Notes: a model not told the origin generated them from the letters alone. DNA of 62,220 nt, filler included, from an uncultured bacterium (GCA_964429075.1; 9 parts of 9 records of this genome joined end to end with filler, not necessarily neighbours in it); one strand, 5' to 3'. Shown: positions 2-55,485, counted from the whole stretch's first letter. Numbers and translations: made by a program.

Positions 2-1435
2 AAGGATGGTGATACAATAACAATTGCGCGCTTCAGGCTTGTTACACAAATAGCATTGCCCAAAAAGGCTGAATCGGATGAGACAGAAGATGTTTCTCAA
101 CCATTAAAGACAACCCCTATAACTCTTGATAAATCTGATGATATCCCAGAAGATCGTATGAATGAATACCGAGAGGTCCTGAAAATTGCCCACGATGCCC
201 TCCTTGAATATCTTGATCTGAAGAGGCTAAATGTGCATCAGATGGGTGATGAAGGACTTAGAGAGCGCACAAAGAAGGCCATTGATGACGTTATTGAACA
301 CATGGAACAAAATGGTGAGATCCCTGAATGGATAAAGATCGATATACTCAAAAAAGATATAATTAATGAGACACTCGGTCTTGGTCCTTTAGAAGATTTT
401 ATGGCAGATGATAGTATCACAGAGATTATGGTAAACAATGCCAAACAGATCTATATTGAAAAAAATGGTAAGGTTATACTAACAAACAAGACATTCTCAA
501 GTGACAAAACTGTTCTGTCTGTAATTGAGAGAATCGTTGCCCCAATTGGGAGAAGGATCGATGAGAGTTCCCCTATGGTTGATGCAAGATTAAAAGATGG
601 CTCACGAGTCAACGTGATAATTCCTCCTCTTGCAATTAAAGGACCCTGCATAACCATTAGAAAATTTAGAAAGAAAAATTTTACTGGCAAAGAACTGGTC
701 AAGATGAAAACCATGACAAAGGGAATGCACGAGTTCCTTAAAGTATGTGTTGTACACAAAAAAAATATCATTGTTTCTGGTGGTACTGGCTCTGGTAAAA
801 CAACTCTTTTAAATGTCCTGTCGCTCTTTGTCCCTGAGAATGAGAGAATAATTACAATAGAAGATTCTGCAGAACTCAGATTAACCCAGGAACATGTGGT
901 CTCACTTGAGGCACGTCCACCAAATATTGAAGGAAAGGGTGAAATCACCATAAGAGACCTTGTTAAAAATTCTCTCAGGATGAGGCCTGATAGGATCATC
1001 GTTGGAGAGTGTAGGAGTGGAGAGGCCCTCGACATGTTGCAGGCTATGAATACCGGGCATGAGGGTTCAATGACTACCCTGCATGCAAACAGCCCTCAGG
1101 ATGCAATTTCAAGACTTGAAACAATGTGTCTGATGGCCGGTATGGAAATCCCGATAAAGGCAATAAGGGAACAGATTGCCTCAGCAATCGATATCATTGT
1201 GCAGCAGAAGAGATTCCCCGGTGGAGAAAGGAAGATTGTTAAGATTTCTGAATTGACAGGCATTGAAGATGATAAAATAATACTTCAGGATATATTCTAT
1301 TTCAAACAGGATGGCTATGATAAAGATGGAAAGGTAATCGGAAGATTTGTTGCAACAGGGTTTATACCACAATTCTATCACGATCTTGCTGAAAGAGGGA
1401 TAAAAGTAAATATGAATATCTTTAGAGTTGAATGA
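2..1435 (+). CDS. cpaF: CpaF/TadA-family pilus assembly ATPase with probable N-terminal FHA domain (5' truncated)
   Basis: Walker A GGTGSGKTT, Asp box TIEDSAEL, LRMRPDRIIVGECRSGEA, His box NTGHEGSMTTLHAN, LGLGPLE and RRIDESSPMVDARL are all CpaF/TadA motifs. The frame is open back to position 2 (KDGDTITIARFRL, like the end of an FHA domain). Confidence 0.9.
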   Translation, partial: KDGDTITIARFRLVTQIALPKKAESDETEDVSQPLKTTPITLDKSDDIPEDRMNEYREVLKIAHDALLEYLDLKRLNVHQMGDEGLRERTKKAIDDVIEHMEQNGEIPEWIKIDILKKDIINETLGLGPLEDFMADDSITEIMVNNAKQIYIEKNGKVILTNKTFSSDKTVLSVIERIVAPIGRRIDESSPMVDARLKDGSRVNVIIPPLAIKGPCITIRKFRKKNFTGKELVKMKTMTKGMHEFLKVCVVHKKNIIVSGGTGSGKTTLLNVLSLFVPENERIITIEDSAELRLTQEHVVSLEARPPNIEGKGEITIRDLVKNSLRMRPDRIIVGECRSGEALDMLQAMNTGHEGSMTTLHANSPQDAISRLETMCLMAGMEIPIKAIREQIASAIDIIVQQKRFPGGERKIVKISELTGIEDDKIILQDIFYFKQDGYDKDGKVIGRFVATGFIPQFYHDLAERGIKVNMNIFRVE

Positions 1436-7031: not shown

Positions 7032-7131
7032 NNNNNNNNNNNNNNNNNNNNNNNNNNNNNNNNNNNNNNNNNNNNTTAATTAATTAANNNNNNNNNNNNN
7101 NNNNNNNNNNNNNNNNNNNNNNNNNNNNNNN
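7032..7131. other. artificial contig linker
   Basis: N44-TTAATTAATTAA-N44, stops in all six frames. Confidence 0.98.
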
Positions 7132-7165
7132 ATTTTACTATCGCCTTTCAAAAGACCCAATGTTC

Positions 7166-7193
7166 TTGACCATTTTAGAAGTCTATATATAAT
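7166..7193 (+). promoter_or_regulatory. putative sigma70 promoter of the glmL-like operon
   Basis: TTGACC-N16-TATAAT about 70 nt upstream of the first ORF, which has an RBS GGGGAGAGG. Confidence 0.6.
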
Positions 7194-7262
7194 GCTACCA
7201 GACGGCAAAAAATCTGAACTCTATGAAATATTAAAGAAAAAAATCAACAATAGGGGAGAGGA

Positions 7263-7547
7263 TTGAACAGAGCTAACAAATTGGAAAACCTTCTCAATTG
7301 CGACGATAAAAACAGGCTTATGAATGAGATTGCTGATAGAGTTACCAGTTCTGGTCTTGGAGTACCCGCGATATTTATTTTGGAGATGTTTAAGCCACTT
7401 ACCTTTGTTTTTTCGAGTCTAATGCACGTCTTTGGTCCCCTTGTCCATACCTTTGGTGAACTGCCGGCATACTCAAAAGTTGCAGAAATATTAGAAAATA
7501 GAAATGATTTTGAGGAACTTATAAAAAAGATTGAACATCGCTTATGA
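7263..7547 (+). CDS. small hypothetical protein, first gene of glmL-like operon
   Basis: TTG start with strong RBS; motif IADRV..GLGVPAIFILEMFKPL...LENR..E.LI..IE. Confidence 0.7.
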   Translation: MNRANKLENLLNCDDKNRLMNEIADRVTSSGLGVPAIFILEMFKPLTFVFSSLMHVFGPLVHTFGELPAYSKVAEILENRNDFEELIKKIEHRL

Positions 7548-7560
7548 TCAGGGTGTATCT

Positions 7561-9378
7561 ATGGAAGAGATGAAAAAGGACTTTTCAAATATTAAATCTG
7601 TCCTGGCGACAGACTGCGGTAGTACCACAACAAAGGCTATCCTGATTGAAAAACGGGGTGATGAGTACAGACTAATCGTAAGGGGTGAAGCACCTACAAC
7701 CGTGGAAGCTCCATTTGAAGATGTAACAAAGGGTGTATTAAATGCAATTATGGAGGTGGAAGATCTAGTTGGTAGAAAGATCTTAGATGGAGACAGAATA
7801 ATAACTCCACAGCAGGGTAATGTTGGCGTGGATGCGTATATCTCTACCTCAAGTGCAGGTGGTGGATTACAGATGATGGTAGCAGGTGTAATCAGAAGTA
7901 TGACTGCAGAAAGTGCGGCAAGGGCAGCTCTCGGTGCAGGTGCAATAGTACTTGAATCGATTGCATCTAACGATGGCAGAATGCCCCATGAAAAGATAGA
8001 GGTTATAAGACAGCTGAGACCTGATATGATCCTCCTTGCCGGTGGTGTGGATGGAGGCACAAAGAAGCATATAATAGAACTTGCCGAATTAATTGCTTCT
8101 GCAAACCCAAAACCAAGACTCGGTATTGGTTACAAACTACCCCTGATATATGCAGGGAATCAGGCCATCAATGATAAGATACAAGAAATATTGTCTGAAA
8201 AAACTGATCTTCATATTGTACCAAATGTTAGACCTACCCTTGATACTGAAAATCTGCAGCCTGCAAGAGACAAGATTCACGACCTATTTATGGAACATGT
8301 AATGGCACAGGCACCCGGATATAAAAAACTGATGAGCTGGACTGATGCACCTATAATGCCAACACCTGGTGCTGTGGGATTACTCATTCAGACGATTGCA
8401 AGAAATGAAAATATAAATGTGGTTGGTGTTGATATTGGTGGAGCAACTACAGATGTGTTCTCTGTATTTGATGGGCAATTCAACCGTACAGTAAGTGCAA
8501 ATCTTGGGATGTCATACAGCATTTCTAACGTCCTTGCAGAGGCTGGCATCAAAAATATACTCAGATGGGTGCCATTTGATGTGGATGAAGTGGAATTGAG
8601 AAACAGGATTGGTAACAAGATGATAAGACCAACCACAGTACCCCATCTCTTAGATGATTTAAAGGTAGAGCAGGCAATTGCAAGGGAGGCCCTGAGACTG
8701 GCATTTATCCAACACAAACAGTTTGCCGTAGAATTAAAGGGTGTACAGCGCCTGAAAACTATCACTGAGACTTTTTCACAAGAGGTTGCAGGAAAGACCC
8801 TTGTCAACATGTTAAAACTCGATATGATTGTTGGAAGTGGTGGTGTACTTTCTCATGCACCGAGGCGATCACAGGCTGCAATGATGATGATTGATGCATT
8901 CTTGCCAGAAGGTATAACAGAACTTACTGTTGACAGTATCTTTATGATGCCCCATCTTGGAGTACTATCAACTCTAAATGAGAGGGCTGCAACCGAGGTC
9001 TTTGAAAAGGACTGTCTGATAAGACTTGGTTATTGCATAGCACCTGTTGGTAACTCTACCTATGGCAAACCATGCCTTGATGTTGAAATAAAATTTGAAG
9101 ATGGCAACATATATCGAGAATCAATCAAGTTTGGCGAGTTAAAATTAATTCCTGTGCCGATTGACAAAAAGGTTCAGGCGAGGTTTACTCCAATGCGTGG
9201 ATTCAATATGGGAGAGGGAAATAAAGTCCCCGTTGAGAGGGAACTTCATGGGGGAGTGGTGGGTTTAATAATCGATTGTCGAGGCAGACCTCTCAGGATC
9301 CCGGAAGATAAATCTGAGAGGCTGAGATTGTTAAAAATGTGGTTTGATGAGATGGGATTATATCCAGATCAGGGTTAA
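7561..9378 (+). CDS. GlmL/MutL (glutamate mutase L)-like ASKHA-family ATPase
   Basis: Two ASKHA phosphate motifs (ATDCGSTTTK, GVDIGGATTDVFS), SSAGGGLQM, PDMILLAGGVDGG, IMPTPGAV, RTVSANLGM, GSGGVLSHAP. Confidence 0.85.
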   Translation: MEEMKKDFSNIKSVLATDCGSTTTKAILIEKRGDEYRLIVRGEAPTTVEAPFEDVTKGVLNAIMEVEDLVGRKILDGDRIITPQQGNVGVDAYISTSSAGGGLQMMVAGVIRSMTAESAARAALGAGAIVLESIASNDGRMPHEKIEVIRQLRPDMILLAGGVDGGTKKHIIELAELIASANPKPRLGIGYKLPLIYAGNQAINDKIQEILSEKTDLHIVPNVRPTLDTENLQPARDKIHDLFMEHVMAQAPGYKKLMSWTDAPIMPTPGAVGLLIQTIARNENINVVGVDIGGATTDVFSVFDGQFNRTVSANLGMSYSISNVLAEAGIKNILRWVPFDVDEVELRNRIGNKMIRPTTVPHLLDDLKVEQAIAREALRLAFIQHKQFAVELKGVQRLKTITETFSQEVAGKTLVNMLKLDMIVGSGGVLSHAPRRSQAAMMMIDAFLPEGITELTVDSIFMMPHLGVLSTLNERAATEVFEKDCLIRLGYCIAPVGNSTYGKPCLDVEIKFEDGNIYRESIKFGELKLIPVPIDKKVQARFTPMRGFNMGEGNKVPVERELHGGVVGLIIDCRGRPLRIPEDKSERLRLLKMWFDEMGLYPDQG

Positions 9379-9380
9379 CT

Positions 9381-10499
9381 ATGGCACATGCATATACACC
9401 AGGGCTTAAGGTCTCAAAAAATACATTGATAAGAAAAACAAGACGCCTACCCCTGCAGGGTGAAGTCTTTGTAAAGGTGGGTGATCATGTCCAGTACAAT
9501 GATGTTATAGCCAAAACAGAACTACCCGGCAAGGTCTACCCAATGAATGTGGCAAACCGACTTAATCTACTCCCCAAGGAAGTGCCACAGTATCTACTAA
9601 AAAAAGAGGGAGATCGGGTTAGGGCCAAAGAGATAATCGCAGAAAAAAAAGGTCTTTTTGGCCTTTTTACCACTCGTTGTGAGAGCCCAATGGATGGTTT
9701 TATCGAAAGTATTTCAGAAATAACCGGCCAGGTTTTGATTAGAGGTAACCCAAATCCTGTTGAGGTAAAGGCCTATATAGACGGTGAAGTGGTGGAGGTT
9801 ATAGAGAAAGAGGGAGCTGTTATTGAAAACAGAGGGACACTGATTCAAGGAATCTTTGGTATTGGAAAGGAGAAAAACGGTCCTATCCATATCTGTGTGG
9901 ACTCCCCAGAAAAGAGCATATCTCTTGAGATGATAACAGAGGAATTAAGAGGTAAGATTATTGTTGCAGGGTCTTATGTAACTGCAGACATAGTTACCAG
10001 AGCATGTGAAACAGGTGTACTTGGCATTATTGCAGGTGGTATAGACTATAAAGATATCAAAGACATCCTCGGATATGAGGTAGGTGTAGCAATTACAGGA
10101 AATGAGGATATTGTTACGACCCTTATAATTACAGAGGGATTTGGCAAGATTACAATGGCAGAAAAGACCTTCCAGTTGCTTCAGGAGTGCGAAGGTATGA
10201 TGGCATCTATAAACGGTGCGACTCAGATTAGAGCAGGTGTAATCAGACCAGAGATTGTAATCATCAGAGAACTTGAAAAAGAGGCAAAAGAACAGGATTT
10301 CAGTATGGGAATTCAGGTTGGAAGTCTTGTGCGAGGCATAAGGACTCCCTATTTTGGTCGCATTGGTAGAGTAACTGCCCTGCCCCATCAACCTACTACC
10401 ATAGAGACAGAGAGCAAAGTCAGAATACTTGAAGTAGAATTTTTAGACGGTGAAAAAGCAATACTGCCGAGAGCCAATGTAGAACAGATAGAGGAGTAA
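9381..10499 (+). CDS. uncharacterised soluble protein with barrel-sandwich-hybrid-like repeats and KOW-like C-terminus
   Basis: VKVGDHV..DVIAK, KKEGDRV...EIIAE and SPMDGFIESIS recall RnfC/NqrA/lipoyl hybrid motifs; central alpha/beta region; C-terminal VGSLVRGIRTPYFGRIGRV. Confidence 0.75.
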   Translation: MAHAYTPGLKVSKNTLIRKTRRLPLQGEVFVKVGDHVQYNDVIAKTELPGKVYPMNVANRLNLLPKEVPQYLLKKEGDRVRAKEIIAEKKGLFGLFTTRCESPMDGFIESISEITGQVLIRGNPNPVEVKAYIDGEVVEVIEKEGAVIENRGTLIQGIFGIGKEKNGPIHICVDSPEKSISLEMITEELRGKIIVAGSYVTADIVTRACETGVLGIIAGGIDYKDIKDILGYEVGVAITGNEDIVTTLIITEGFGKITMAEKTFQLLQECEGMMASINGATQIRAGVIRPEIVIIRELEKEAKEQDFSMGIQVGSLVRGIRTPYFGRIGRVTALPHQPTTIETESKVRILEVEFLDGEKAILPRANVEQIEE

Positions 10500-10502
10500 G
10501 AC

Positions 10503-11909
10503 TTGACCCAGGCATTTCTATATGATAGCAAAAAGGCAATGAGTGCAATTAAAAATGGCATTAACCTTTTTTTATCACACATCTTTTTGATAATACTATG
10601 TCTTTCTTTTTCTTCTCTGTCTTTTGCTACAGAAAAAGAGAATGGATCAAGCCCAAACAACACTGAAAAAATAACTATAGAGAAAGACAACAACAACACC
10701 AATAATCCCCAACAGCAGACCACACAAAGATCTAACGAAGAAACCCTGACAAAAGAGGGTTCTCAAAAGAAGACGAAAGATAATGAAGTCTCAGAAGAAA
10801 AACCAACAATAGTACCGGTCAGTCCGGTTACAAATCTTGTTGCAAAGGACACCCCCAACGATGCTGGCCACTCTATTGCCCTTTCATGGGAACCATCTCA
10901 GGATGAAAAAGAAAAACGTGTTAAGGGCTATGCTATCTTTCGTGCCATCAGTTCAAATGGGCCTTTTGTCAAAATCGGAGGTGATCAACTACTGCCGCCT
11001 GGTACAAAAGAATACAAAGACAGAGATAAAAACCTAAAAAACGGAACAAGATATTTTTATAAGATTGTAACATACGGCAAGGGCAAAAGTGAAAGTCAAC
11101 AATCAGCTTCACAGGTTGTTTCAGCAATCCCTAAGATGCAGATCTTCAATACAGACAAAATTGCCCTATTTGTACTTATAATACTTAATAGCATCTTTAT
11201 ACTTTTTAATATCTTCAGGGCAAGGAGAGGAGAATCTCTGTATATCAGACCGGTTGCCGGCCTTGAGGCTGTTGATGAGGCTGTTGGCAGGGCAACAGAG
11301 ATGGGGAAACCGGTTCTCTTTGTCCCCGGGATTATGGATATGGACAATATTCAGACAATAGCTGCCATGGTGATCTTAAACAGGGTTGCTAACAAGACAG
11401 CTGAATACGAAGCCGACCTCCTTGTACCCTGTTCAAAAGCGGTTGTTATGACAACAGCACAGGAGGTTGTTAAGGCAGCATATCTTGATGCAGGAAGACC
11501 TGACGCCTACAGAGAGGATATGGTCAGCTACCTTACTGATGATCAGTTCGGTTATGCCGCAGGTATAGATGGGATAATGGTGCGCGAAAGGCCTGCAGCA
11601 AATTTCTTTATAGGTGCATTTTATGCAGAATCTTTGATCCTGGCTGAGACAGGGGCATCAATCGGTTCCATTCAGGTTGCCGGCACTGCTATGCCATCAC
11701 AACTACCATTTTTTATCACAGCCTGCGACTATACATTGATCGGTGAGGAGTTATTTGCTGCAAGTGCCTATCTATCGAAGGACCCACAACTTTTAGGAAG
11801 TCTTAAAGGTCAAGATTGGGGAAAATTTTTCTTTCTCGTTTTAATCTTTACCGGGATGATACTTGAGTTTTTTGATATAAAATGGCTTTATAACCTTTTA
11901 AATAAGTAG
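10503..11909 (+). CDS. membrane protein: signal peptide, low-complexity linker, FN3 domain, TM, DUF6754-like domain, TM
   Basis: FN3-like PVTNLVAKDTP..IALSW...Y.IFR...YFYKIVT; TM followed by RARRG; IRPVAGLEAVDEAVGRATEMGKPV, AESLILAETG, QLPFFITACDYTLIGEELFAASAYLS recalled as DUF6754. Confidence 0.75.
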   Translation: MTQAFLYDSKKAMSAIKNGINLFLSHIFLIILCLSFSSLSFATEKENGSSPNNTEKITIEKDNNNTNNPQQQTTQRSNEETLTKEGSQKKTKDNEVSEEKPTIVPVSPVTNLVAKDTPNDAGHSIALSWEPSQDEKEKRVKGYAIFRAISSNGPFVKIGGDQLLPPGTKEYKDRDKNLKNGTRYFYKIVTYGKGKSESQQSASQVVSAIPKMQIFNTDKIALFVLIILNSIFILFNIFRARRGESLYIRPVAGLEAVDEAVGRATEMGKPVLFVPGIMDMDNIQTIAAMVILNRVANKTAEYEADLLVPCSKAVVMTTAQEVVKAAYLDAGRPDAYREDMVSYLTDDQFGYAAGIDGIMVRERPAANFFIGAFYAESLILAETGASIGSIQVAGTAMPSQLPFFITACDYTLIGEELFAASAYLSKDPQLLGSLKGQDWGKFFFLVLIFTGMILEFFDIKWLYNLLNK

Positions 11910-11911
11910 CT

Positions 11912-12604
11912 ATGAGAAAACAGGTTCCAATAACAATTACACTTATTGTAGGGATCGTGATGATCCTTTCATACTTTTTACCCCCGATATCTAAGTTCAA
12001 TGAGACCTTCCAGCAGTGGTTTATCGTAATTTCTGCTGCTGTAATGATCCTTGGTATAATAAACCTGATCAGTGTTAACTGGGCAAAAATAAAACACAAA
12101 AGAGAAAACTGGCAATACAGTATAGTACTTGTTGCTGGATTTGCAATGGTAACAATTTTTGGATTCTGGAATGTTTTTGTCTGGATTTTTACAAAACTGG
12201 GTATTGACCTTGGCCCATACTGGATGCTGCAGGGGAAAGCAAGTCCACTGGATCAGGGAACACCACTAAACTATGTATTTAATTATGTCCATGTGCCGAT
12301 GTCTTCTACCATGTTTTCACTGCTTGCCTTTTATGTGGCATCTGCGGCATACAGGGCATTTAGGGCAAGATCTTTAGAAGCTACTCTACTGTTAATTGCG
12401 GCCTTTATTGTAATGTTAGGAAGGGTGCCGATCGGTGATGCTATTAGTCACTGGATACCATCTGTAGCTGAGTGGATTATGGACATTCCAAACACAGCAG
12501 GTCAGAGGGCAATCAAGATTGGTATTGCTCTTGGAATTGTCTCAACATCTTTAAGAATAATATTTGGGATCGAACGCTCCTACCTTTCCGATGGAGGGGA
12601 CTAA
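11912..12604 (+). CDS. polytopic membrane protein of unknown function
   Basis: About 6 hydrophobic segments; motifs FSLLAFYVASAAYRAFRARS, MLGRVPIG, PNTAGQRAI.IG. Confidence 0.8.
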   Translation: MRKQVPITITLIVGIVMILSYFLPPISKFNETFQQWFIVISAAVMILGIINLISVNWAKIKHKRENWQYSIVLVAGFAMVTIFGFWNVFVWIFTKLGIDLGPYWMLQGKASPLDQGTPLNYVFNYVHVPMSSTMFSLLAFYVASAAYRAFRARSLEATLLLIAAFIVMLGRVPIGDAISHWIPSVAEWIMDIPNTAGQRAIKIGIALGIVSTSLRIIFGIERSYLSDGGD

Positions 12605-13447
12605 ATGAATACCCCAGAACAAAAACCAGGCTTTTTTGAAAGACTTCAGAGTATTGATAAGCGTTATATATATCTAATGATCGCTTTGGGAGTCCTTATT
12701 CCATTGATTAAACCAATCGGACTACCCATACGTCCTTCTGGTCCTGCAAAGAAATTATACAGTGCGATTGATTCTCTAAAGGAGGGTGATGTAATCCTTA
12801 TGTCATTCGACTATGGTGCATCGACCAAGCCTGAGCTCTATCCAATGTCACTTGCCCTTTTAAAGCACTTTTTCAGAAAGAATCTCAAGGTGGTTGTGGT
12901 GGCATTATGGCCAGAGGGTGCTCAGATGGCTGTCAATGCCCTACACACTGTTGCAACAGAGATGGGTAAAAAATACGGTAAGGACTATGTCAATCTTGGA
13001 TTCAAGACTGGAGGTCTTATTCTGATAAGGCAGATTGGATCGGGCATTAAGGAGGCATTCCCAACTGACATAAACAACACACCTCTTGAAAAGCTTCCCA
13101 TGATGCAGAATATACACGACTACTCTGATATAGATATGGTCATTGAGTTATCTGCCGGTGCACCAGGAATCCCAGAATGGATAATGGTTGCAAAAGATGA
13201 ATTTAACACACCCGTTGGTGGAGGCTGTACTGCAGTAAGTGCACCAGATTTCTATCCATATCTGCAATCTGGTCAGCTGGTAGGTCTTCTTGGGGGTCTG
13301 AAAGGGGCGGCTGAATATGAATCCCTCGTTGGTTACAAGGGTAAGGCAACAGCAGGCATGGATTCACAATCAATTGCTCATCTTATAATCATCCTGTTTA
13401 TAATACTTGGAAATCTTTCTTACTTTATAACAAGGTTAAAGAGGTAA
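12605..13447 (+). CDS. membrane protein with a soluble alpha/beta domain between two TM helices
   Basis: N-terminal TM, soluble domain (FDYG, YGKDYVNLGF, GQLVGLLGGLKGAAEYE), C-terminal TM. Confidence 0.8.
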   Translation: MNTPEQKPGFFERLQSIDKRYIYLMIALGVLIPLIKPIGLPIRPSGPAKKLYSAIDSLKEGDVILMSFDYGASTKPELYPMSLALLKHFFRKNLKVVVVALWPEGAQMAVNALHTVATEMGKKYGKDYVNLGFKTGGLILIRQIGSGIKEAFPTDINNTPLEKLPMMQNIHDYSDIDMVIELSAGAPGIPEWIMVAKDEFNTPVGGGCTAVSAPDFYPYLQSGQLVGLLGGLKGAAEYESLVGYKGKATAGMDSQSIAHLIIILFIILGNLSYFITRLKR

Positions 13448-13449
13448 CA

Positions 13450-14112
13450 ATGGAAATAGTGGGTATATGGATAGCTGCAATCTTGACCTTTTGTATATTT
13501 AGTTTTTTATACAAGGATAACCCACTTTACAAATTTGCAGAACATCTTTTTGTAGGGGTTTCTGCAGGCTACTGGCTTGCATATTCATACTGGAATTCCT
13601 TCCATCCCAACCTTGTCAAAAAGATATATATCCCATTTTATAGACCCGATGGTGATGTATGGTTATGGATTGCATTTATCCTTACATTGATGATGTTTAC
13701 AAAACTAATACCCAACATCTCCTGGATGAGTAGATGGACCCTTGCATTCATTATTGGTGCAAGCTCTGGAATGAACCTCGTAACATACTTTAAAACAGAT
13801 ACACTTATGCAGGTCACCCATACTATCGTACCATTAATCGTCAAAAAAGGTGGCCAAATCGATATCGCTGCCTCTTTGAACAACACAATCCTGTTTATAG
13901 GCATATGTACAGGACTGATATACTTCTACTTTTCCAAGGAACATAAAGGTACCTTTGGCAGGATTGCCAAGATAGGGATCTATTTTCTTATGATTGCCTT
14001 TGGTGCTGCATTTGGATACACTGTAATGGCAAGGATCTCTCTTTTAATTGGTCGTATGCAGTTTTTAATTGATGAATGGTGGGCAAAAGGTGTAATGGGC
14101 CTATTCAGTTAA
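13450..14112 (+). CDS. polytopic membrane protein of unknown function
   Basis: About 6 TM segments; motifs SFLYKDNPLYKFAEHLFVGVSAGY and MIAFGAAFGYTVMARISLLIGR. Confidence 0.8.
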   Translation: MEIVGIWIAAILTFCIFSFLYKDNPLYKFAEHLFVGVSAGYWLAYSYWNSFHPNLVKKIYIPFYRPDGDVWLWIAFILTLMMFTKLIPNISWMSRWTLAFIIGASSGMNLVTYFKTDTLMQVTHTIVPLIVKKGGQIDIAASLNNTILFIGICTGLIYFYFSKEHKGTFGRIAKIGIYFLMIAFGAAFGYTVMARISLLIGRMQFLIDEWWAKGVMGLFS

Positions 14113-14146
14113 TCTTCTAAGATCATATTGTACCTTACTATAAAAT

Positions 14147-14246
14147 NNNNNNNNNNNNNNNNNNNNNNNNNNNNNNNNNNNNNNNNNNNNTTAATTAATT
14201 AANNNNNNNNNNNNNNNNNNNNNNNNNNNNNNNNNNNNNNNNNNNN
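14147..14246. other. artificial contig linker
   Basis: N44-TTAATTAATTAA-N44. Confidence 0.98.
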
Positions 14247-28455: not shown

Positions 28456-28526
28456 AAAGGCATTGTTTTATTTTGTTACACATATATATTTCATTTGAAA
28501 CTAAACCTTTTTTTGATTTATATGTC

Positions 28527-28542
28527 TGGCATAAAGTTTGTT
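28527..28542 (+). promoter_or_regulatory. putative sigma54 (-24/-12) promoter
   Basis: TGGCATAAAGTTTGTT = GG-N10-GT (GT instead of GC at -12), about 33 nt upstream of ATG 28575. Confidence 0.6.
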
Positions 28543-28574
28543 TTAAGGAAACAAAAATTGCCGGAGGTGTATGT

Positions 28575-31238
28575 ATGAAGAAGAAAGGAATTACCCGCAG
28601 AGATTTTCTTAAGATAAGCGGTATTCTTGCATCAGCATCGTTTGTCAACATTAACTTTTTATCGAGGGTGGTGCGGGCCCAACAATCCTATTCTACTGGA
28701 GTTGTAGAGTATCACAACAGTACCTGTAAGATGTGTGTGAATTTCTGTGGAATCAGGGTAAAGACAGAAGATGGTATTCTCAGAGCAATCTATCCAAACA
28801 AAGACAAAAAAGACTACTACAACTGGGGAAATTGTACAAAAGGAATTTCTGGTATCTGGTCAACCTACAACCCCTACCGTTTAAAAAAGCCACTCAAACG
28901 CACCAATCCCAAAAAGGGTATTGATGAAGATCCTGGATGGGTAGAGATAGATTGGGAGGATGCACTCAACGAGGTGGCGAGTAAGATGGCAAGTATAATA
29001 GCAGACGATCCAAGGAAGATTATATGGTATCACGGACATGGGAAATACGTTATTAACGATGGGTGGATGAAGGCCTTTACAGCTGCTATCGGTACTCCAA
29101 GCATGGTTCACCGTACCACCGTTTGTGAAGGTGCAAAGCATGTTGCAGATGAGATTACATGGGGTGGTCATGAACCGTTACCTGATCTTCAGTATACCAA
29201 TTATCTGATAAACATGGGTGGTAATTATGCAGAGGCTGATCAGTGGGCACGCTGGCTCGATCATGCAACTATGGATGCAAAAGAGCGCGGGATGAAACTG
29301 GTAGTTGTAGAGCCAAGGGTAAGTAATCTTGGTGCCCATGCAGATGAGTGGGTACCGATCAGACCTGGCAAAGATGTACTATTTTTGCTTGCTATGGCAA
29401 GGGTGCTTATTGATGAAGGATTTGTTGATGAAGAGTTTCTTGTTAACTATACCAATGCGCCATATCTTATAAGAGAGTCTGATGGAAAGGTTGCAACAGA
29501 TCAAGATGGGAATCCTCTTGTCTATGATAAGGCGCAGTCAAAGATAGTGCCCTATGATGATGCTACAGATATTGCACTTGGTGGTGCCTATGAGGACAAC
29601 GATTATGGTAATGGCACAGTCAAGACAGCCTTTCAGAAGTTTAAAGACTACCTTGTAACAGAAAATATTACTCCGCAGAGTGTATCTGTAGACTGTGGTG
29701 TCCCGGCTGAACAGATAGAAAGGATCGCAAAGGAATTTGGTGAGGCTGCACAGATAGGTGCAACAATAACAATAGAGGGCCAGACCCTTAGATATCGTCC
29801 TGTATCTATATATACCTTCAGAGGACTCGCTGCAAAGCAATTCGGTGCTCAGAACTGTAGATCCTATCTGATTGTACTTATGCTGGTTGGTGCAATTGAT
29901 GCTGTAGGTGGTTTTAGGTTGCACCATCCAGGTAATGTTGATAAATATATGCAGCCCTCATCCTGCGAATATCCACCATCAAGGATTGACCTTAAAAAGA
30001 GTGCCTTTTTCCCGCATGGCACGCATGATGTTGCACAACAGGCACTCTTTTCAGTATTGAATCCAAGTCAATACGGTATAGACTATGAACCAGAGATGCA
30101 GATATTCTTTGCGACCAATAGACCTTTCTCTACATCGAATGCAGAGCTTCAGTTTGAGGCACTAAAAAAGACATACAATGTGGCAATTGAAATTTCAATG
30201 AATGAAACTGTATGGTTTGCAGATATTGTATTTCCTGATAAGACCTATCTCGAGGCATACGGCTACTATGGTGGGCGTTGGACACCTGTAAGCACCCATC
30301 ATACACTGCATTATCCAATAGTAAATACCTATAATCTGCCTTATCAAAATCTTGAGATAATGTTTGAGCTTGCAAAGAGGGCAGGTTTTCTTACAGGCTC
30401 AGGTGGTTTCCTCGACCAGATAAACAACAAATTTGGATTTTCTGATCCAAAATTTGATATAAATAAAGAGGACTATACTGCAAAGGATGCCTTCGATATC
30501 CTCTGGCAAAACAAGACAGGGCAGACCCTTGATGAGGGAATGAAGGAGGGATTTGGTGGAGCAAAGTTTACCACAATCGAAGAGAGATATATCGAGGGTG
30601 CAGAGAGTCATTTCAAAGGGCCGGGTAAACCAAAAATCCACTTTTACTGTGATGAACTTGTGGGAACTCAAGAAAATCTTTATAACCTCATGAATACAAA
30701 TACAGAGGCAGCACAGAACATTAAAAAGGCATATTCAACCTGGTATGAGGTGGACGAATCACAGGTAGAAGATTTAATCAGGTTGTATCTCTCACCATTT
30801 CCAAGAAAAGAACATGCATTCCCTGTGTCACATCAGAATGCAAAAGACTATCCATTTTACCTGATCACTTTTAAGAGAATCTATAGGACACAGAGTGGAT
30901 TCTGTAACTACAATCCAATGCTCTATCAGGTTGCACACGATTCAGACACAAATCGTGTCTGGATAAACCCAAAGACTGCAGAGCAGCTTGGTATTAAAGA
31001 TGGAGATACAGTTGTCATTGAGTCAAGGATAGGCAAGGTTGAAGGAGTGGCAAAACTGACACATTGTGTCCGTCTTGATACTGTTGCTGTTGCCTATCAC
31101 TATGGTCATTGGAGCGGTGGCTATCCATCCTGGGCACAGAAGGGTACTTGGATTAACAAGGTCCTGGAATACCACCCTGATATGCTTTCTGGTATGAACA
31201 ACTTTAATGATACAAAGGTTAAAATTTACAAGAAATAA
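28575..31238 (+). CDS. TAT-exported molybdopterin (bis-PGD) oxidoreductase catalytic subunit, DMSO reductase family
   Basis: TAT motif TRRDFLK, RBS GGAGG; FS0 motif CKMCVNFC...CTKG; PLKRTNPKKGIDEDPGWVEIDWEDAL; ADEWVPIRPGKD; ADIVFPDKTYLE; C-terminal WINPKTAEQLGIKDGD. Confidence 0.93.
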   Translation: MKKKGITRRDFLKISGILASASFVNINFLSRVVRAQQSYSTGVVEYHNSTCKMCVNFCGIRVKTEDGILRAIYPNKDKKDYYNWGNCTKGISGIWSTYNPYRLKKPLKRTNPKKGIDEDPGWVEIDWEDALNEVASKMASIIADDPRKIIWYHGHGKYVINDGWMKAFTAAIGTPSMVHRTTVCEGAKHVADEITWGGHEPLPDLQYTNYLINMGGNYAEADQWARWLDHATMDAKERGMKLVVVEPRVSNLGAHADEWVPIRPGKDVLFLLAMARVLIDEGFVDEEFLVNYTNAPYLIRESDGKVATDQDGNPLVYDKAQSKIVPYDDATDIALGGAYEDNDYGNGTVKTAFQKFKDYLVTENITPQSVSVDCGVPAEQIERIAKEFGEAAQIGATITIEGQTLRYRPVSIYTFRGLAAKQFGAQNCRSYLIVLMLVGAIDAVGGFRLHHPGNVDKYMQPSSCEYPPSRIDLKKSAFFPHGTHDVAQQALFSVLNPSQYGIDYEPEMQIFFATNRPFSTSNAELQFEALKKTYNVAIEISMNETVWFADIVFPDKTYLEAYGYYGGRWTPVSTHHTLHYPIVNTYNLPYQNLEIMFELAKRAGFLTGSGGFLDQINNKFGFSDPKFDINKEDYTAKDAFDILWQNKTGQTLDEGMKEGFGGAKFTTIEERYIEGAESHFKGPGKPKIHFYCDELVGTQENLYNLMNTNTEAAQNIKKAYSTWYEVDESQVEDLIRLYLSPFPRKEHAFPVSHQNAKDYPFYLITFKRIYRTQSGFCNYNPMLYQVAHDSDTNRVWINPKTAEQLGIKDGDTVVIESRIGKVEGVAKLTHCVRLDTVAVAYHYGHWSGGYPSWAQKGTWINKVLEYHPDMLSGMNNFNDTKVKIYKK

Positions 31239-35229: not shown

Positions 35230-38200
35230 CTGTATGTTTCAGAGATCTGGATAGTGGTAGACTATACAAAGGTAGATGGAATGTATTTCACCACTTCACC
35301 ACAGATATTAAATAAAGGTCAATGCTCTGGTCCAATGACCTTTGAAGTCAGAGACATACACGGAAGCCCTGTCACTATGCTGACAGACACTAATTTTAAC
35401 CTGTCGAGTACATCGGGGGGTGGAACCTTCTATTCAGATTCTGGCTGTACAACCGCGATAACTCAGATCACCATACCTGCCGGCCAGAGTTCTGCTACAT
35501 TTTATTACAAAGACAATAATGCTGGGAATCCCACGATAACAGTTTCAGAAAATCCCAACCAGGGATGGAACGATGGTAGTCAGACTGAGACAGTAGGGAT
35601 TGCAAAGACGGTGTTCACAAATGCCCCTGTTACCATCACAGCAGGGCAGTGTTCTGGTGCGCTATCTATCCAGACACAGGATAATGGGGGTAACAGTGTG
35701 TATCCTGTTGTCGATATCACCTATGATTTGAGTTCTACCTCATCTGGTGGGAGTTTTTATTCTGATCCCTCCTGCAGTATCCAGATAAACCAGGTAACAA
35801 TGCCTGCAGGAGCCACCTCAACAACCTTTTACTACAGTGATACAGTTGCCGCAAATCCAACCATTACTGCTTCTGAGACCTCACCTGATAGAGGCTGGAC
35901 CGATGCAACCCAGACAGAGACGGTAAATCCAGGTCCACCTTCACAGACCGTCTTTTCTACCGATGTACAGTATGTATCTCAGAACAACTGTTCCAATGTA
36001 TTTACCATTCAGGTAAGGGATCAGTACGGGAATGACACCACAGTAACAGCAGATCAGCAGTACAGCCTTACAAGTAGCTCCACCACAGGCTCCTTTTTCC
36101 AAGATGCTGCCTGCGGTACCACTATTAGCACCATTACTATTACTGCAGGTAGCGGATCTGCAAATTTTTACTATCTGGATACCACCCAGGGAACCCCCAC
36201 CATAACAGCAGCCGAGACCCCAGATCAGGGATGGAACGATGCTCAGCAACAGGTAAATATAGTTGGTGTGATAGATCATATTTCATTTATAAATGATCCA
36301 AAGAATCTGAATACTGGTAGCTGTTCTTCTGCATACAGGGTGCAAGTTCAGGATGCATCTGGAAATCCTGTTGATGTAAAGAGCAATACCACAATAGATC
36401 TTACCTCAACATCGACAACCGCACAGTTCTTCTCAGATCCATCTTGTAACACAAATGTCTCGTCAATTGTAATAGCCCCATCTAACAATACAGGAGTTTT
36501 TTATTACAAAGATACCACATCAGGGATTGCTACAATAACCGCAACGGCAACCGGACAGCCTTGGAATAGTATAACAGATTCTCAAGATGTCATTGTTAAT
36601 GATCCATCTTCGAATCCACCTGTAATTTTGATTATGAGTCCACAGAGTGGAGGCATTGTTGGAGGCAAAGTAAGAATAAGGGTCTATGTATATGACAATA
36701 CTAATCAACTTGATCTTACAAAACCTGTGCAGATTGCGTTTGACTCTGCATTTAGTGGTGATTATAAGACCCTTACTACAGCTAATACAAACCTTACAAA
36801 CAGTGCCAATGAAGGTTATTACGATCTTTTATGGGATTCTGTAAATGGTATAACCGGGGATAATGGTACAACTATCGGTGCGTATGGTCCAAACTACACA
36901 GGAAGTGTAAGATTATATGTAAGGAGTTATGATGATCTTGGAAATGTATCTGTAAAGGTTGTAACAGTTACAGTTAAAAATAGCGGTTCAAAACCGCTTG
37001 GTGATGGGAGGTTGCTAAGAAGAGAATTTTCAAGCCAGCTATGTTTTGACTGTCACAATGTAAAGACCCATTCTGCAAACAATACAGATTTCAGATATGG
37101 TACATGGGCACTGAACTGTCTCGACTGTCATACACCACATAAAACTAAGAATGTATACCTGATAAAAGAATCAATAGAAACACCAAATAGTGGTACAAAG
37201 AGTGTTGATTTTAGATATCCAGAAGAGGGTGTTGCAGACTATGGACTTGCAGAGGCAAATGATCCACCGGGTAGTAATGGTAAGCAGGCTGGTAATGGAA
37301 TTTGCGAGATCTGTCATACCAAGACTGTAAGGTTTACAAACACAGGAGATGGTCCAAATGGACACTTTACTTTCAAATGTACTGGATGTCATAGCCATAC
37401 AAATGGTTTCAAAGGTCGAGAGAGTACAGGTGGTGAGTCCTGTAGTTGCCATCCGAATGTATATAAACCAATGGATTATACAAGTGGCAATACCTCGGGT
37501 TACCATCACAGTATCGAGACTATTCAACCAACCTATTTTACAGACACAACACCAACTCCTGATAATACAGTTGTAGACACAAATTGTTTGCAGTGTCATG
37601 TGGATCACGATCTATTCAATCCAAATGTGGATGCTACAAATAGAAGGGCTTACAATTTAAGAAAGAGTGTCTCTTCAACTCCTGTAAGCAATGCTGATGC
37701 AATAAACACTGACTTTATCTCAGGTGGACCAAACTATGGTCCATGTATAGATTGTCATCAGTTTTCACAGCAGAAATCTACAAGTGGTGTAAAGTCTGAT
37801 GGAACAACTCAGACTCCTGTAATAGATGGAGCAAGCTTTGACTCATCAAGTCACAACTACACAGCCGGAGTGACCTCTACCTTCAGTGATGGTACAACCT
37901 TCAATGGGAACTGTGTAAAATGCCATAATGACAACCTTCAGAAGTGGATGCAGCAGGGAAGTAATCCGAAGTTTTCACTACATGATTCAGACAGGCGACA
38001 TATGTTGAGTGACAATGAGAGTGCTGACGGTGGGACTGGATCGCCAACTGCTGGTGCCGCAGAGAGTACATATAACTCTTTAGAAGAGAATCTCTGCTTT
38101 TTGTGTCATGAAAATAGTACAAATCCAACAACCGATATATATGGCAACCCTATGTCTGCAAGATCAAAGACCTTACAACAGGCAGTATCGGATACTAGGA

Positions 38201-39564
38201 CCTCTTACCACCCAGTAACCGACAGTACTATGGCAGGCAGACATAAGGCAGTAGAGGCAGATACAAGGGGATGGATGCCAAGTGGTCAAAGGCATGTGGA
38301 GTGTGAGGATTGCCACAATCCTCATGCAGCTAATTCAACAACACCATGGAAGGGTGCCCGTGGTGTGGTGGTAGATACAACCACACTATCGGATGGTACA
38401 ATGAAGGATACGGATTATACAGGTGTAACTGACAATCCATCCTCTCAGTATCAGGTGTGTCTGAAGTGTCACTCAAAGTGGGCTTGGGATACGGGGACAC
38501 CACCAGATGTACCATCCGGACCACCTTATGGGAGTCAAACATGGGTAGAGACAGATGTTGGTGAAGATTTTGATCCAGACAATTATGCATATCACCCAAT
38601 TTTCAAGAAGGGTAGAAATCAGCCGTTAAAGGTCTCAGGCACAGGTACATCGTACTACAATCCTAATTGGCCTAAATATACAACAGGGACTGCCTCTACC
38701 GATGGGGTAAATCCGATTGTAACAATAAGTGGTGGTTCTATACCAGCTGGAGTAACCCAGGGGTGGTGGATCTATCTCGGCAGCACCAATCCACCATCAT
38801 CTACAAATACAGGTTGGTATAAAATACAGTCTCGTGATTCAAATACTCAACTTACTTTGACAACAGTTCCACCAGCTTACAGTGGAGCATATACTATAAC
38901 CTCTGGCCTTAAAGCAAACTTTACAGATGGATGGGGACCGGACAGTATACTCGAATGTACCGATTGCCATACAGACTCAGATACTAATAACGCAAGGGGA
39001 CCACACGGATCAAGTGCGAAATGGCTTTTAGCAAAGCAGAGACCGGATGTGACAGCAACAGATATAAACGGCACTGTATACTACCCCAATTGTGGCAATG
39101 GTATAACTACTCCATGCAGCTCTGCAAGTCTTGCCTATCCAGACAACTTCTGTACAAACTGCCATAGAGGTGATGTTTATGGTAGAGGTATTAAAAGTAA
39201 ATCTGATAGGAATTTGGCATCATATAGTCGAATAGGACATATGGATCAAACAGATAGTGACTGCTTTGGTACAAATGCAGAGACAGGCAAGGGTACCCGC
39301 TGGCCAATAGGATGTATGAACTGTCATGGAGGAGATTCACCTGGTGGAATACATGGATCAAACAGAGGCCCAGGTACAACTGGAGACGAGATGGGAAAAC
39401 GATTTACAAATGGCTCTTCCTGGCAGGCTCATATACTTGGAGACTCTGCTGGAAGTGTGGGATGCATAAACAAATCGCAGCCTGACGATCTTACCACCTG
39501 CACAAAACACCAGCTTAATAATCCAAAGTATATAACACCTAATTATTATTACCCCTGGGAATGA
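35230..39564 (+). CDS. giant extracellular-type multiheme cytochrome c with Ig-like repeats (5' truncated)
   Basis: Frame open from the contig start; four ~110-aa Thr/Ser-rich repeats plus a further Ig-like domain; 13 canonical CxxCH and one CSCH. Confidence 0.9.
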   Translation: MYVSEIWIVVDYTKVDGMYFTTSPQILNKGQCSGPMTFEVRDIHGSPVTMLTDTNFNLSSTSGGGTFYSDSGCTTAITQITIPAGQSSATFYYKDNNAGNPTITVSENPNQGWNDGSQTETVGIAKTVFTNAPVTITAGQCSGALSIQTQDNGGNSVYPVVDITYDLSSTSSGGSFYSDPSCSIQINQVTMPAGATSTTFYYSDTVAANPTITASETSPDRGWTDATQTETVNPGPPSQTVFSTDVQYVSQNNCSNVFTIQVRDQYGNDTTVTADQQYSLTSSSTTGSFFQDAACGTTISTITITAGSGSANFYYLDTTQGTPTITAAETPDQGWNDAQQQVNIVGVIDHISFINDPKNLNTGSCSSAYRVQVQDASGNPVDVKSNTTIDLTSTSTTAQFFSDPSCNTNVSSIVIAPSNNTGVFYYKDTTSGIATITATATGQPWNSITDSQDVIVNDPSSNPPVILIMSPQSGGIVGGKVRIRVYVYDNTNQLDLTKPVQIAFDSAFSGDYKTLTTANTNLTNSANEGYYDLLWDSVNGITGDNGTTIGAYGPNYTGSVRLYVRSYDDLGNVSVKVVTVTVKNSGSKPLGDGRLLRREFSSQLCFDCHNVKTHSANNTDFRYGTWALNCLDCHTPHKTKNVYLIKESIETPNSGTKSVDFRYPEEGVADYGLAEANDPPGSNGKQAGNGICEICHTKTVRFTNTGDGPNGHFTFKCTGCHSHTNGFKGRESTGGESCSCHPNVYKPMDYTSGNTSGYHHSIETIQPTYFTDTTPTPDNTVVDTNCLQCHVDHDLFNPNVDATNRRAYNLRKSVSSTPVSNADAINTDFISGGPNYGPCIDCHQFSQQKSTSGVKSDGTTQTPVIDGASFDSSSHNYTAGVTSTFSDGTTFNGNCVKCHNDNLQKWMQQGSNPKFSLHDSDRRHMLSDNESADGGTGSPTAGAAESTYNSLEENLCFLCHENSTNPTTDIYGNPMSARSKTLQQAVSDTRTSYHPVTDSTMAGRHKAVEADTRGWMPSGQRHVECEDCHNPHAANSTTPWKGARGVVVDTTTLSDGTMKDTDYTGVTDNPSSQYQVCLKCHSKWAWDTGTPPDVPSGPPYGSQTWVETDVGEDFDPDNYAYHPIFKKGRNQPLKVSGTGTSYYNPNWPKYTTGTASTDGVNPIVTISGGSIPAGVTQGWWIYLGSTNPPSSTNTGWYKIQSRDSNTQLTLTTVPPAYSGAYTITSGLKANFTDGWGPDSILECTDCHTDSDTNNARGPHGSSAKWLLAKQRPDVTATDINGTVYYPNCGNGITTPCSSASLAYPDNFCTNCHRGDVYGRGIKSKSDRNLASYSRIGHMDQTDSDCFGTNAETGKGTRWPIGCMNCHGGDSPGGIHGSNRGPGTTGDEMGKRFTNGSSWQAHILGDSAGSVGCINKSQPDDLTTCTKHQLNNPKYITPNYYYPWE
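35284..36600 (+). repeat. four tandem ~330-bp coding repeats (Ig-like domains with a conserved Cys pair)
   Basis: Recurring CS...QV.D..GN.V...L.S.S..G.F.SD..C...I..G....FYY.D...G.PTIT units. Confidence 0.8.
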
Positions 39565-54705: not shown

Positions 54706-55485
54706 TTATATCCTATCTGGACCTAAAAAGAACAGCTCAAAATTGTTCTGATCATCCGATACAAGAACCACTCCAAGAACCTCTCCCATGTTACCTGAAG
54801 ATATTTCAATACCTCGTATATTCTCAGCGGTCCATGAACCAGGGAAAATAATCTCTTTTGTTTTTCTGCCCCAATTATTATGTATAATATCTCCTACCAT
54901 CATTGTTAATTTGTATTCACCATTTACATATCTATCGAAGAGAAGATGCAGTCTGTTCATCGGATCAACAGTCATATCTANNNNNNNNNNAGATTAAGAC
55001 CTGTTGGCTGTCTATAATCTCTTTCATCCATAATCTGAGGACCTGGATCACTATTATAAAAACTTTTTAAATATAGTCTCTCCTTTATCAGTAGAAATGG
55101 ACCTGAACCAGATGTGTATTTTAAAAAGTAACTGATGAATGTGCTTTCTGAATTATCTTTTCTCATTGAAAGTCCGTATATAAGATTTTCGTTTTGAGAA
55201 TCTTCATCTATCTTATTCCTCAACTCATTATTATCATCAGTCTTATATGAGGCAACAATCTTTAGATATTCAGAGGATGATTTTGTATATCGTGATATTT
55301 GTATGTTATTCATATTTGATTCAATTGGATCGATCGTATCGGTAGAGCCAAGTTGTTTGCTCACTAAAATATCACTCCAATCTGAGTCTTGGCTCTTTTT
55401 TACAACCTTTACCCAGTATTCCATATATAATACGGTCCATTTTTTGATATAGTTTTCATATTCATAGGCCAGATAGATCTGTTCT
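54706..55485 (-). CDS. hypothetical protein upstream of the Rhs gene (5' truncated, interrupted by a 10-N scaffold gap)
   Basis: Frame of ORF 54978-55424 is open to the contig end; ORF 54706-54975 continues on the other side of the gap at 54981-54990; probably one gene. Confidence 0.55.

Follow-up and report, generated by a model that had tools for sequence, protein, structure and literature searches.

A conserved gene set joining a GlmL-like ASKHA ATPase to DUF6754 membrane modules in uncultured bacteria: a candidate ATP-driven machine

A figure legend of PMC4682846 describes GlmL/MutL as a chaperone that reactivates glutamate mutase, and passages of PMC5597319 place FtsA, PilM, and GspL within the actin/Hsp70 superfamily. 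Here, a stretch of 62,220 nucleotides from an uncultured bacterium (GCA_964429075.1), referred to as the window, was analyzed for an operon at positions 7,166 to 14,112, where a GlmL-like protein (encoded by g2) had been predicted to serve a membrane complex rather than a B12 mutase. The gene set is real and conserved, is composed of two units, and is not the helper of a B12 mutase. The first unit, which we call the engine, pairs the ATPase g2 with its partner g3 and also includes two small membrane proteins, g0 and g1; the second is a membrane module of g4, g5, g6, and g7, in which g4 carries the DUF6754 domain. The comparisons used genomes other than that of the window, whose genomes, contigs, and loci are given by the handles G, C, and L.

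The closest named relatives of g2 are GlmL/MutL, followed by the diol/glycerol dehydratase reactivases. GlmL and Or-4 belong to the same Pfam family (PF13941) and the same actin/Hsp70 fold class as g2; however, g2 is approximately 120-145 residues longer, has the obligate partner g3, and keeps the company of DUF6754 rather than that of GlmE. The large subunit of the diol/glycerol dehydratase reactivase (1nbw chain A) also combines an actin/Hsp70-fold ATPase with a swivelling domain, whereas here the swivelling domain resides on a separate protein together with hybrid and KOW barrels, no dehydratase or B12 enzyme was seen to be linked in the neighbor clusters scanned, and the fold match of the g3 model to 1nbw_A is weak (Foldseek E 0.013, probability 0.89). 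In the energy-coupling factor (ECF) transporters, one energising module is shared by several membrane components of different substrate specificity, and the system studied here resembles them in having one cytoplasmic ATPase unit and several paralogous membrane units per genome, but its ATPase is of another fold, its modules have four subunits and large outward domains, and no component is related. Similarly, FtsA, PilM, and GspL are cytoplasmic actin-fold proteins whose genes, like g2, accompany an envelope system and small membrane proteins of the bitopic or hairpin kind, although g2 falls on the GlmL/hydantoinase-like branch and the conserved set is without pilus, secretion, or division genes. 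Additionally, residues ~49-123 of g3 superpose on the RnfC chain 8ahx_C (Z 7.7, root-mean-square deviation (rmsd) 2.5, 64 aligned) and the NqrA chain 4u9o_A (Z 7.5, rmsd 2.1, 64 aligned), but this is a single small domain with Z values in the common range, and the other Rnf/Nqr subunits are absent from the set.

No literature naming DUF6754, PF20539, or PF13941 was found in the literature collection searched, and broader searches of it returned no publication on this system. Neither a solved relative nor a studied homologue was found for any of the eight proteins.

Co-occurrence of the ATPase and the membrane module

Gene order was surveyed at 80 DUF6754 loci from species genomes. Where at least 3.5 kb was available on one side, g4 was accompanied by g5, g6, and g7 in nearly every case (66 of 70 loci). 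For the engine, g2 or g3 lay within the available flanks of 40 of the 80 loci, in 25 of them colinear as in the window, in four downstream of g7, in 10 divergent, and in one convergent; of 35 loci whose flanks reached the full 10 kb, 19 had g2 or g3 nearby. Among seven tested genomes without this adjacency, six carried a long PF13941 gene elsewhere.

Co-occurrence was also surveyed at the genome level. All 121 Zixibacteriota genomes encoded DUF6754 and 120 of them encoded PF13941, such that 120 had both families and one had DUF6754 only. In the phylum of G001, which is labelled WOR-3, both families were present in 39 of 41 genomes and both were missing from the same two. The Planctomycetota, where DUF6754 is present in only 24 of 81 genomes, included 22 genomes with both families, 56 lacking both, two with DUF6754 only, and one whose sole match was a weak, partial one to PF13941; the set is carried by the single-contig Planctomycetota genomes G243, G226, G206, and G197, among others. 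When the three phyla were pooled (243 genomes), 181 genomes had both families, 58 had neither, three had DUF6754 only, and one had the weak PF13941 match only. Fisher tests that ignore kinship gave p values of 3.5e-51 for the pooled set and 1.7e-16 for the Planctomycetota alone, where both the counts and the p values overstate independence because the sampled genomes are related.

A comparable association with B12 enzymes was not observed. GlmE (PF06368) was found in five of 61 Zixibacteriota genomes, as opposed to PF13941 in 60 of the same 61, and in G016, the sole genome compared for position, GlmE is encoded on contig C2 and the ATPase on C1 beside DUF6754. The lysine/ornithine aminomutase family PF09043 matched none of the 61 genomes, yet its control likewise matched nowhere, and no dehydratase gene was present among the neighbor clusters scanned. 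The proposal that this ATPase travels with membrane genes and not with B12 mutases is therefore borne out by the 181 of 243 genomes with both families and the scarcity of GlmE, and none of the three findings named beforehand as speaking against it appeared: the membrane genes are co-conserved with this GlmL-like clade, co-occurrence with glutamate mutase is not strict, and no known transporter family was matched. One argument offered for it, the lack of a mutase gene on the contig, carries no weight, since the contig piece contains nothing except the operon.

The distribution of the genes also revises the view of the locus as a seven-gene operon. Although the seven genes exist and lie close together, they do not form a fixed unit, and the division into engine and module describes the set better. 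Within the engine, natural fusions exist, which argues that g2 and g3 work as a pair: two proteins of 995 and 1003 amino acids consist of PF13941 and the entire g3, and a 924-amino-acid paralogue consists of PF13941 with the barrel and swivelling domains but no KOW. The latter is encoded at L086 804-3575 on the minus strand in G022, where it adjoins an OmpA/CsgG-like gene and not DUF6754 genes, and six long frames resembling this diverged fusion were seen among the 121 Zixibacteriota genomes. The genes g0 and g1 may be replaced as a tether by c16, a conserved gene of approximately 250 amino acids found in six loci. In the divergent arrangement c16 lies between g2 and g3 (L037, L043, L046, L061, and L073); it has no Pfam match and shows a weak hint of a C-terminal membrane span.

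Module matches outnumber engine matches. A genome usually contains one to six module matches and one engine match, and most Zixibacteriota genomes have four to six DUF6754 matches and a single PF13941 match. Up to three g4-g7 modules occur in tandem, where the copies share 50-65% identity in the core and 27-40% in the ectodomain. A module tree constructed with FastTree, with local support values only, groups the copies of different genomes by position (first with first, second with second, third with third), an indication that the duplications are old. The ectodomain differs in architecture as well, with N-terminal PQQ-like beta-propellers or extra FN3 domains in longer members of the DUF6754 family. 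At the second DUF6754 locus of G002 (L088 1324-3708, minus strand; L062 is the same place), DUF6754 is fused to an SppA part that follows the last membrane span at the C-terminus (Peptidase_S49, E 1e-43; TIGR00706, 167.7 bits against a cut-off of 155.45), and g5-g7 are not found alongside this fusion.

Proteins of the engine and the module

The original prediction had described the products as a 605-amino-acid GlmL/MutL-like ATPase, a hybrid-barrel/KOW-like protein, an FN3+DUF6754-like protein, and three more membrane proteins, together making up a complex not of the ATP-binding cassette (ABC) or ECF type. Most of this description held. The ATPase matches PF13941 over the whole of that model, g3 has weak Pfam matches to both fold types, and hydrophobic spans are present in all four of g4-g7. 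None of the seven proteins matched an ABC ATPase, EcfT, or S-component family at E<=0.01 in Pfam or NCBIfam, the two collections used for all family searches below unless one is named. For g4, DUF6754 is strong in Pfam, but the FN3 part appears at the profile level only and was not found in the Pfam scan of the single sequence.

The match of g2 to Pfam MutL (PF13941) scores 437.1 bits against a threshold of 27 (E 9.6e-131) and covers model positions 1-450 of 450; Hydantoinase_A is matched weakly (Pfam, E 8.3e-7). The best NCBIfam matches are GlmL and Or-4, although g2 stays below the curated cut-offs of GlmL (NF040745, 239.5 vs 475 bits), Or-4 (NF040744, 231.4 vs 600 bits), and glmL_fam (TIGR01319, 183.9 vs 204.05 bits). 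Among 28 sequences from the genomes of the Fibrobacteres-Chlorobi-Bacteroidetes group that were compared, mean column identity is 72% and four glycine-rich stretches (residues 18-25, 161-167, 289-298, and 426-434) do not vary; we take these to be the nucleotide-binding motifs of the acetate and sugar kinase/Hsp70/actin (ASKHA) fold. Judged from its sequence, g2 is an ASKHA (actin/Hsp70-fold) ATPase of PF13941 and not a curated GlmL. It represents a long form, extended at the C-terminus by a conserved stretch of ~120 residues. A genome from the phylum of G001 (G149) encodes, besides the long form, a short GlmL-type gene at C3:27095-28480 (a 476-amino-acid frame with 546 bits to PF13941), and the two forms of PF13941 are therefore distinct. 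No relative of g2 with a solved structure was found by sequence search, and no Hsp70-like peptide-binding domain was found in it.

The partner g3 matched no family above threshold. Weak Pfam matches among 31 relatives were to Biotin_lipoyl (24), RnfC_N (15), NQRA_N (6), and KOW (5), and its sequence profile found no solved chain below E 0.16. The profile did recover representative clusters, 3556 with E<=0.001 and 1077 with E<=1e-30. A structure model with a predicted local distance difference test score (pLDDT) of 85.3 and a predicted template-modelling score (pTM) of 0.70 presents g3 as a soluble, three-domain partner of g2 (domains in the table); structure-comparison Z values of 7-8 are common with this tool, and the domain calls hold at the fold level. 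The N-terminal peptide of g3 is highly conserved. Two candidate activities suggested by such folds were rejected: the column of the hairpin-tip residue K45 is unconserved among the 31 sequences, with a consensus of R, and no histidine occupies an invariant or nearly invariant column. Hence, g3 is neither a biotin/lipoyl carrier nor a phospho-histidine carrier of the type of the phosphoenolpyruvate-utilising enzymes and enzyme I of the phosphotransferase system (PTS).

In the module, g4 matches DUF6754 (PF20539) with 407 bits against a threshold of 27 (E 3.4e-122, model 2-255 of 257), and its FN3 domain was recognized in the N-terminal part when the A1 family profile was compared with titin FN3 (E 9e-18); FN3 was the sole route by which g4 matched solved chains. 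The protein is predicted to consist of a signal or anchor span, a low-complexity stretch with the FN3-like outer domain, a second span, DUF6754 (~200 amino acids), and a last span. Hydropathy and charge place the motif RARR directly after the span that precedes DUF6754, and the DUF6754 domain is probably cytoplasmic. More than 8000 homologues of g4/DUF6754 exist, and the core is 62-72% identical to the homologues listed, whose source labels include Latescibacteria, WOR-3, Zixibacteria, and Cloacimonetes, among others. Structure modelling within the module covered the DUF6754 part, and g5-g7 were judged by sequence. The DUF6754 model is poor (pLDDT 60.9, with the most conserved stretch below 50), and a fold search with it reached a best Z of 6.9, to generic alpha/beta proteins; with PF20539 set aside, no named look-alike was found in the Protein Atlas. 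A complex prediction for g4 residues 236-442 and g3 scored 0.00, on which the tool returns no verdict and which speaks neither for nor against binding.

The remaining module proteins are g5, a multi-span membrane protein with a conserved arginine-rich loop that is probably cytoplasmic; g6, with a membrane span at either end and between them a domain of ~220 amino acids that its sequence places, probably, outside the cytoplasm; and g7, another multi-span membrane protein. None of the three matched a family. Pfam scans of 33 relatives of g6 at E<=1 gave scattered chance matches alone, the Protein Atlas contained only unnamed clusters for g6, and the profiles of g5, g6, and g7 found nothing below E 0.67 among solved chains. 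Profile comparison revealed no homology between g5 and g7 or between g4 and g6.

Layout of the operon piece

The window is a chain of pieces of ~7 kb joined by linkers of 44 N, TTAATTAATTAA, and 44 N, and pieces that adjoin in it are not implied to be adjacent in the genome. Linkers of this form (N44-TTAATTAATTAA-N44) are located at 7032-7131 and 14147-14246 and at six more sites, and a separate run of 10 N is present at 54981-54990. The operon is the sole content of the piece between the first two linkers (7132-14146, 7,015 bases), which ends 34 bases 3' of g7. The other pieces of the window contained neither a further copy of any of g1-g7 nor a Ton or Tol gene. Among sequencing runs, one DNA run contains the stretch and may be the source of it, whereas no RNA run containing it was listed.

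Table. Genes, promoter-like site, and predicted g3 domains of the operon piece (window positions unless residues are stated)
Feature	Position	Strand	Description
g0	7132..7266	+	last 44 codons of an eighth gene; first 135 bases of the piece
promoter-like hexamers TTGACC-16-TATAAT	7166-7193	+	11 of 12 positions matched, best in the piece
g1	7263-7547	+	94 amino acids, TTG start
g2	7561-9378	+	605 amino acids from ATG; upstream TTG at 7531 likewise open
g3	9381-10499	+	372 amino acids
g3 barrel-sandwich hybrid domain	residues ~16-150		CusB Z 7.2, HlyD Z 7.1, RnfC Z 7.7, NqrA Z 7.5
g3 swivelling beta/beta/alpha domain	residues ~152-296		PTS enzyme I 2wqd_A Z 8.9, rmsd 2.7, 107 aligned; RraA Z 8.4
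g3 KOW/SH3-like barrel	residues ~310-372		Z 8.4-8.8 to NusG and Spt5 domains
g4	10503-11909	+	468 amino acids
g5	11912-12604	+	230 amino acids
g6	12605-13447	+	280 amino acids
g7	13450-14112	+	220 amino acids

The seven open reading frames lie where they had been predicted, close-packed on the plus strand, with gaps from g1 to g7 of 13, 2, 3, 2, 0, and 2 nucleotides. Two further claims about the layout, that the operon is self-contained and that one promoter at 7166 drives it, did not survive. A reading frame stays open from base 7132, where the piece begins, until the TGA at 7264-7266, and this stop shares bases with the g1 start codon, the TTG at 7263 (TTGA). Its 44 residues match the C-terminus of the proteins of cluster c9 in tblastn searches (four of nine c9 queries, from L030, L036, L054, and L032, with E values of 1e-5 to 5e-4 and all matches at 7132-7251). 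According to alignment and hydropathy, the c9 proteins have ~140-150 amino acids, two hydrophobic spans, and a conserved C-terminal domain, and c9 lies directly upstream of g1 in the drawn loci L015, L052, L024, L054, L030, and L064. The open frame, the matches to c9, and the place of c9 before g1 together identify g0 as an eighth conserved gene, cut by the contig end; read from the sequence in this way, the operon has at least eight genes, its 5' end is lost, and it is not self-contained. The hexamers at 7166 are located within the coding frame of g0 and can thus be an internal promoter at most, and the piece contains 19 promoter-like sites, no more than the mean of 19.8 in shuffled sequence.

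The short product of g1 matched no family and has a single hydrophobic stretch, a marginal one at residues 32-50. It was detected by tblastn in 19 of the 34 loci with a g2 match and probably belongs to the ATPase unit as a small component associated with the membrane.

Other pieces of the window encode several large proteins. A 1944-amino-acid open reading frame of the Rhs/Tc-like polymorphic toxin type is present at 48858-54692 on the minus strand, with Pfam matches to TcdB_toxin_midN, RHS repeat, SpvB, and FG-GAP. On the plus strand, a multihaem cytochrome c protein of 1436 amino acids (Cytochrome_C7, Paired_CXXCH_1) is encoded at 35254-39564, and a molybdopterin oxidoreductase of 921 amino acids is encoded on another piece at 28473-31238. 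The latter two hint at respiratory metabolism of metals or anions in this bacterium.

Neighboring genes and proposed function

Ton or Tol genes were found within 10 kb of 19 of the 80 loci, and three arrangements were distinguished. Where the locus is titled WOR-3 or Stahlbacteria, the order downstream of g7 is a DUF4388 gene, four unknown genes, ExbB, two ExbD, TonB, another unknown gene, and a TonB-dependent receptor. The five genes between g7 and ExbB (L004, L008, L009, L012, and L026) are conserved and encode the DUF4388 protein and four proteins of 116-222 amino acids without a family match. In loci titled Fermentibacteria or Aegiribacteria, glycine cleavage genes precede c9 and g1-g7, which are followed by a receptor, ExbB, ExbD, and TonB. 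The glycine cleavage genes encode the T, H, and two P subunits on the same strand, directly upstream of c9-g1-g7 (L013, L015, L029, L052, L057, and L064). In one lineage of Zixibacteriota, three tandem modules stand divergent to a run of g2, c16, and g3 that continues into TolQ, TolR, a TolA-like gene, TolB, Pal, and a CpoB-like gene (L037, L043, L073, and partly L061). Since MotA/ExbB genes are few, at 2-5 per 1.9-3.4 Mb in five checked genomes, chance adjacency to Ton or Tol genes was estimated at ~2% per locus, and the three independent arrangements hint at a link without proving it.

Other neighbors were seen as well. A divergent bactofilin gene adjoins g4 on the minus strand at L001 9234-9653 and L003 9247-9666, of which one locus is titled Zixibacteriota and the other Coatesbacteria. 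Genes for NfeD, SPFH/Band 7, and CBS proteins lie between two modules in L058. No Sec or YidC link was seen in the 80 loci, where the Pfam scan covered the commonest clusters and a few locus-specific genes.

The reading placed first, as a tentative choice, is ATP-coupled translocation by a shared engine and its modules, with a link to Ton-dependent uptake. The actin/Hsp70-fold g2 and its obligate partner g3 would form a cytoplasmic engine, probably held at the membrane by g0 and g1. In the module, DUF6754 would face the cytoplasm, and the variable ectodomain (FN3-like here) and the g6 domain would face outward. The engine would dock on the cytoplasmic face of the modules, and ATP hydrolysis in g2-g3 would perform conformational work on them that moves cargo through the cytoplasmic membrane. 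For two-membrane bacteria, the most likely process would be uptake of material brought across the outer membrane by TonB-dependent receptors. We infer the docking, the direction of transport, and the cargo from gene content, co-occurrence, match numbers, fusions, and neighborhoods. Uptake was ranked first because of the many old paralogous modules, their divergent ectodomains, and the neighboring receptor and Ton genes. The broader claim, that an ASKHA ATPase with a barrel/swivel/KOW partner acts as the shared engine of paralogous four-subunit modules linked to envelope traffic and thus represents a new class of ATP-driven machine, is possible but somewhat doubtful.

Several observations weigh against translocation by a shared engine. 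Among the fully flanked loci, 16 of 35 have no g2 or g3 nearby; the complete chromosome G003 has five DUF6754 matches and zero PF13941; the co-occurrence statistics are inflated by kinship; the Ton/Tol link comes from approximately three lineages; and no subunit matched a transporter family or fold in Pfam, NCBIfam, the solved-chain profiles, or the DUF6754 fold search. In addition, the FN3 and propeller ectodomains, the SppA fusion, the bactofilin, and the NfeD/SPFH and Tol-Pal neighbors fit a role in the envelope or in quality control about equally well. FN3 and beta-propeller domains typically bind proteins or glycans, and the actin-fold proteins FtsA, PilM, and GspL dock on bitopic membrane proteins. 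The ATPase and its partner could instead be a cytoplasmic scaffold or motor that positions or remodels envelope structures through g4-g7 and their ectodomains, together with Tol-Pal in division or in outer-membrane upkeep. The direct run of g2-c16-g3 into the Tol-Pal genes, the bactofilin beside g4, the DUF4388 gene after g7 in WOR-3 and Stahlbacteria loci, and the domains of the outer face would all agree with such a machine; however, four to six old paralogous module matches per genome would be unusual for division or upkeep, the Tol-Pal adjacency is confined to one lineage, and other lineages place the set beside receptors and ExbBD-TonB, so that we regard it as rather unlikely, although a serious alternative. 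We hold it to be unlikely that the Hsp70-like unit extracts, inserts, or hands over polypeptides at g4-g7 in connection with proteolysis on the outer face. The DUF6754-SppA fusion and the NfeD, SPFH/Band 7, and CBS genes of L058 point in this direction, as do the reactivating chaperone described in the figure legend of PMC4682846 and the fold common to g2 and Hsp70 according to passages of PMC5597319, but there is a single fusion and a single neighborhood of this kind, a peptide-binding domain like that of Hsp70 was not detected in g2, and the scanned clusters of the 80 loci showed no link to Sec or YidC.

Two simpler explanations fare worse. If engine and module were functionally unrelated and often mere neighbors, the fully flanked loci without g2 or g3 and the modules of G003 without PF13941 would be expected; this is nevertheless very improbable in view of the joint presence and absence of both families across 243 genomes, their shared lack in the same two of 41 genomes in the phylum of G001, and an adjacency realized in four different arrangements. 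The least probable explanation, and one close to refuted, is that g2 is a classical GlmL reactivase of a B12 mutase encoded elsewhere and that the membrane genes are incidental. Its membership in PF13941 and its best NCBIfam matches, GlmL and Or-4, agree with that explanation, whereas the scores far under the curated cut-offs, the disparity between GlmE (5/61) and PF13941 (60/61), the separate contigs of the two genes in G016, the short GlmL-type gene that G149 carries besides the long form, and the tight co-occurrence of PF13941 with DUF6754 all contradict it. The weights given to these five readings leave a remainder for functions that were not thought of.

For the organisms concerned, the annotation of this ATPase as "glutamate mutase L" or similar misleads the metabolic reconstruction of uncultured bacteria, and nearly all sampled genomes of some uncultured phyla carry the set. 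If the proposal of an engine with modules is true, it would add a new way of coupling ATP to membrane work, distinct from the ABC, ECF, P-type, and rotary ATPases, and it would open a way to study nutrient uptake or envelope maintenance in phyla for which metagenomes are the main source of knowledge.

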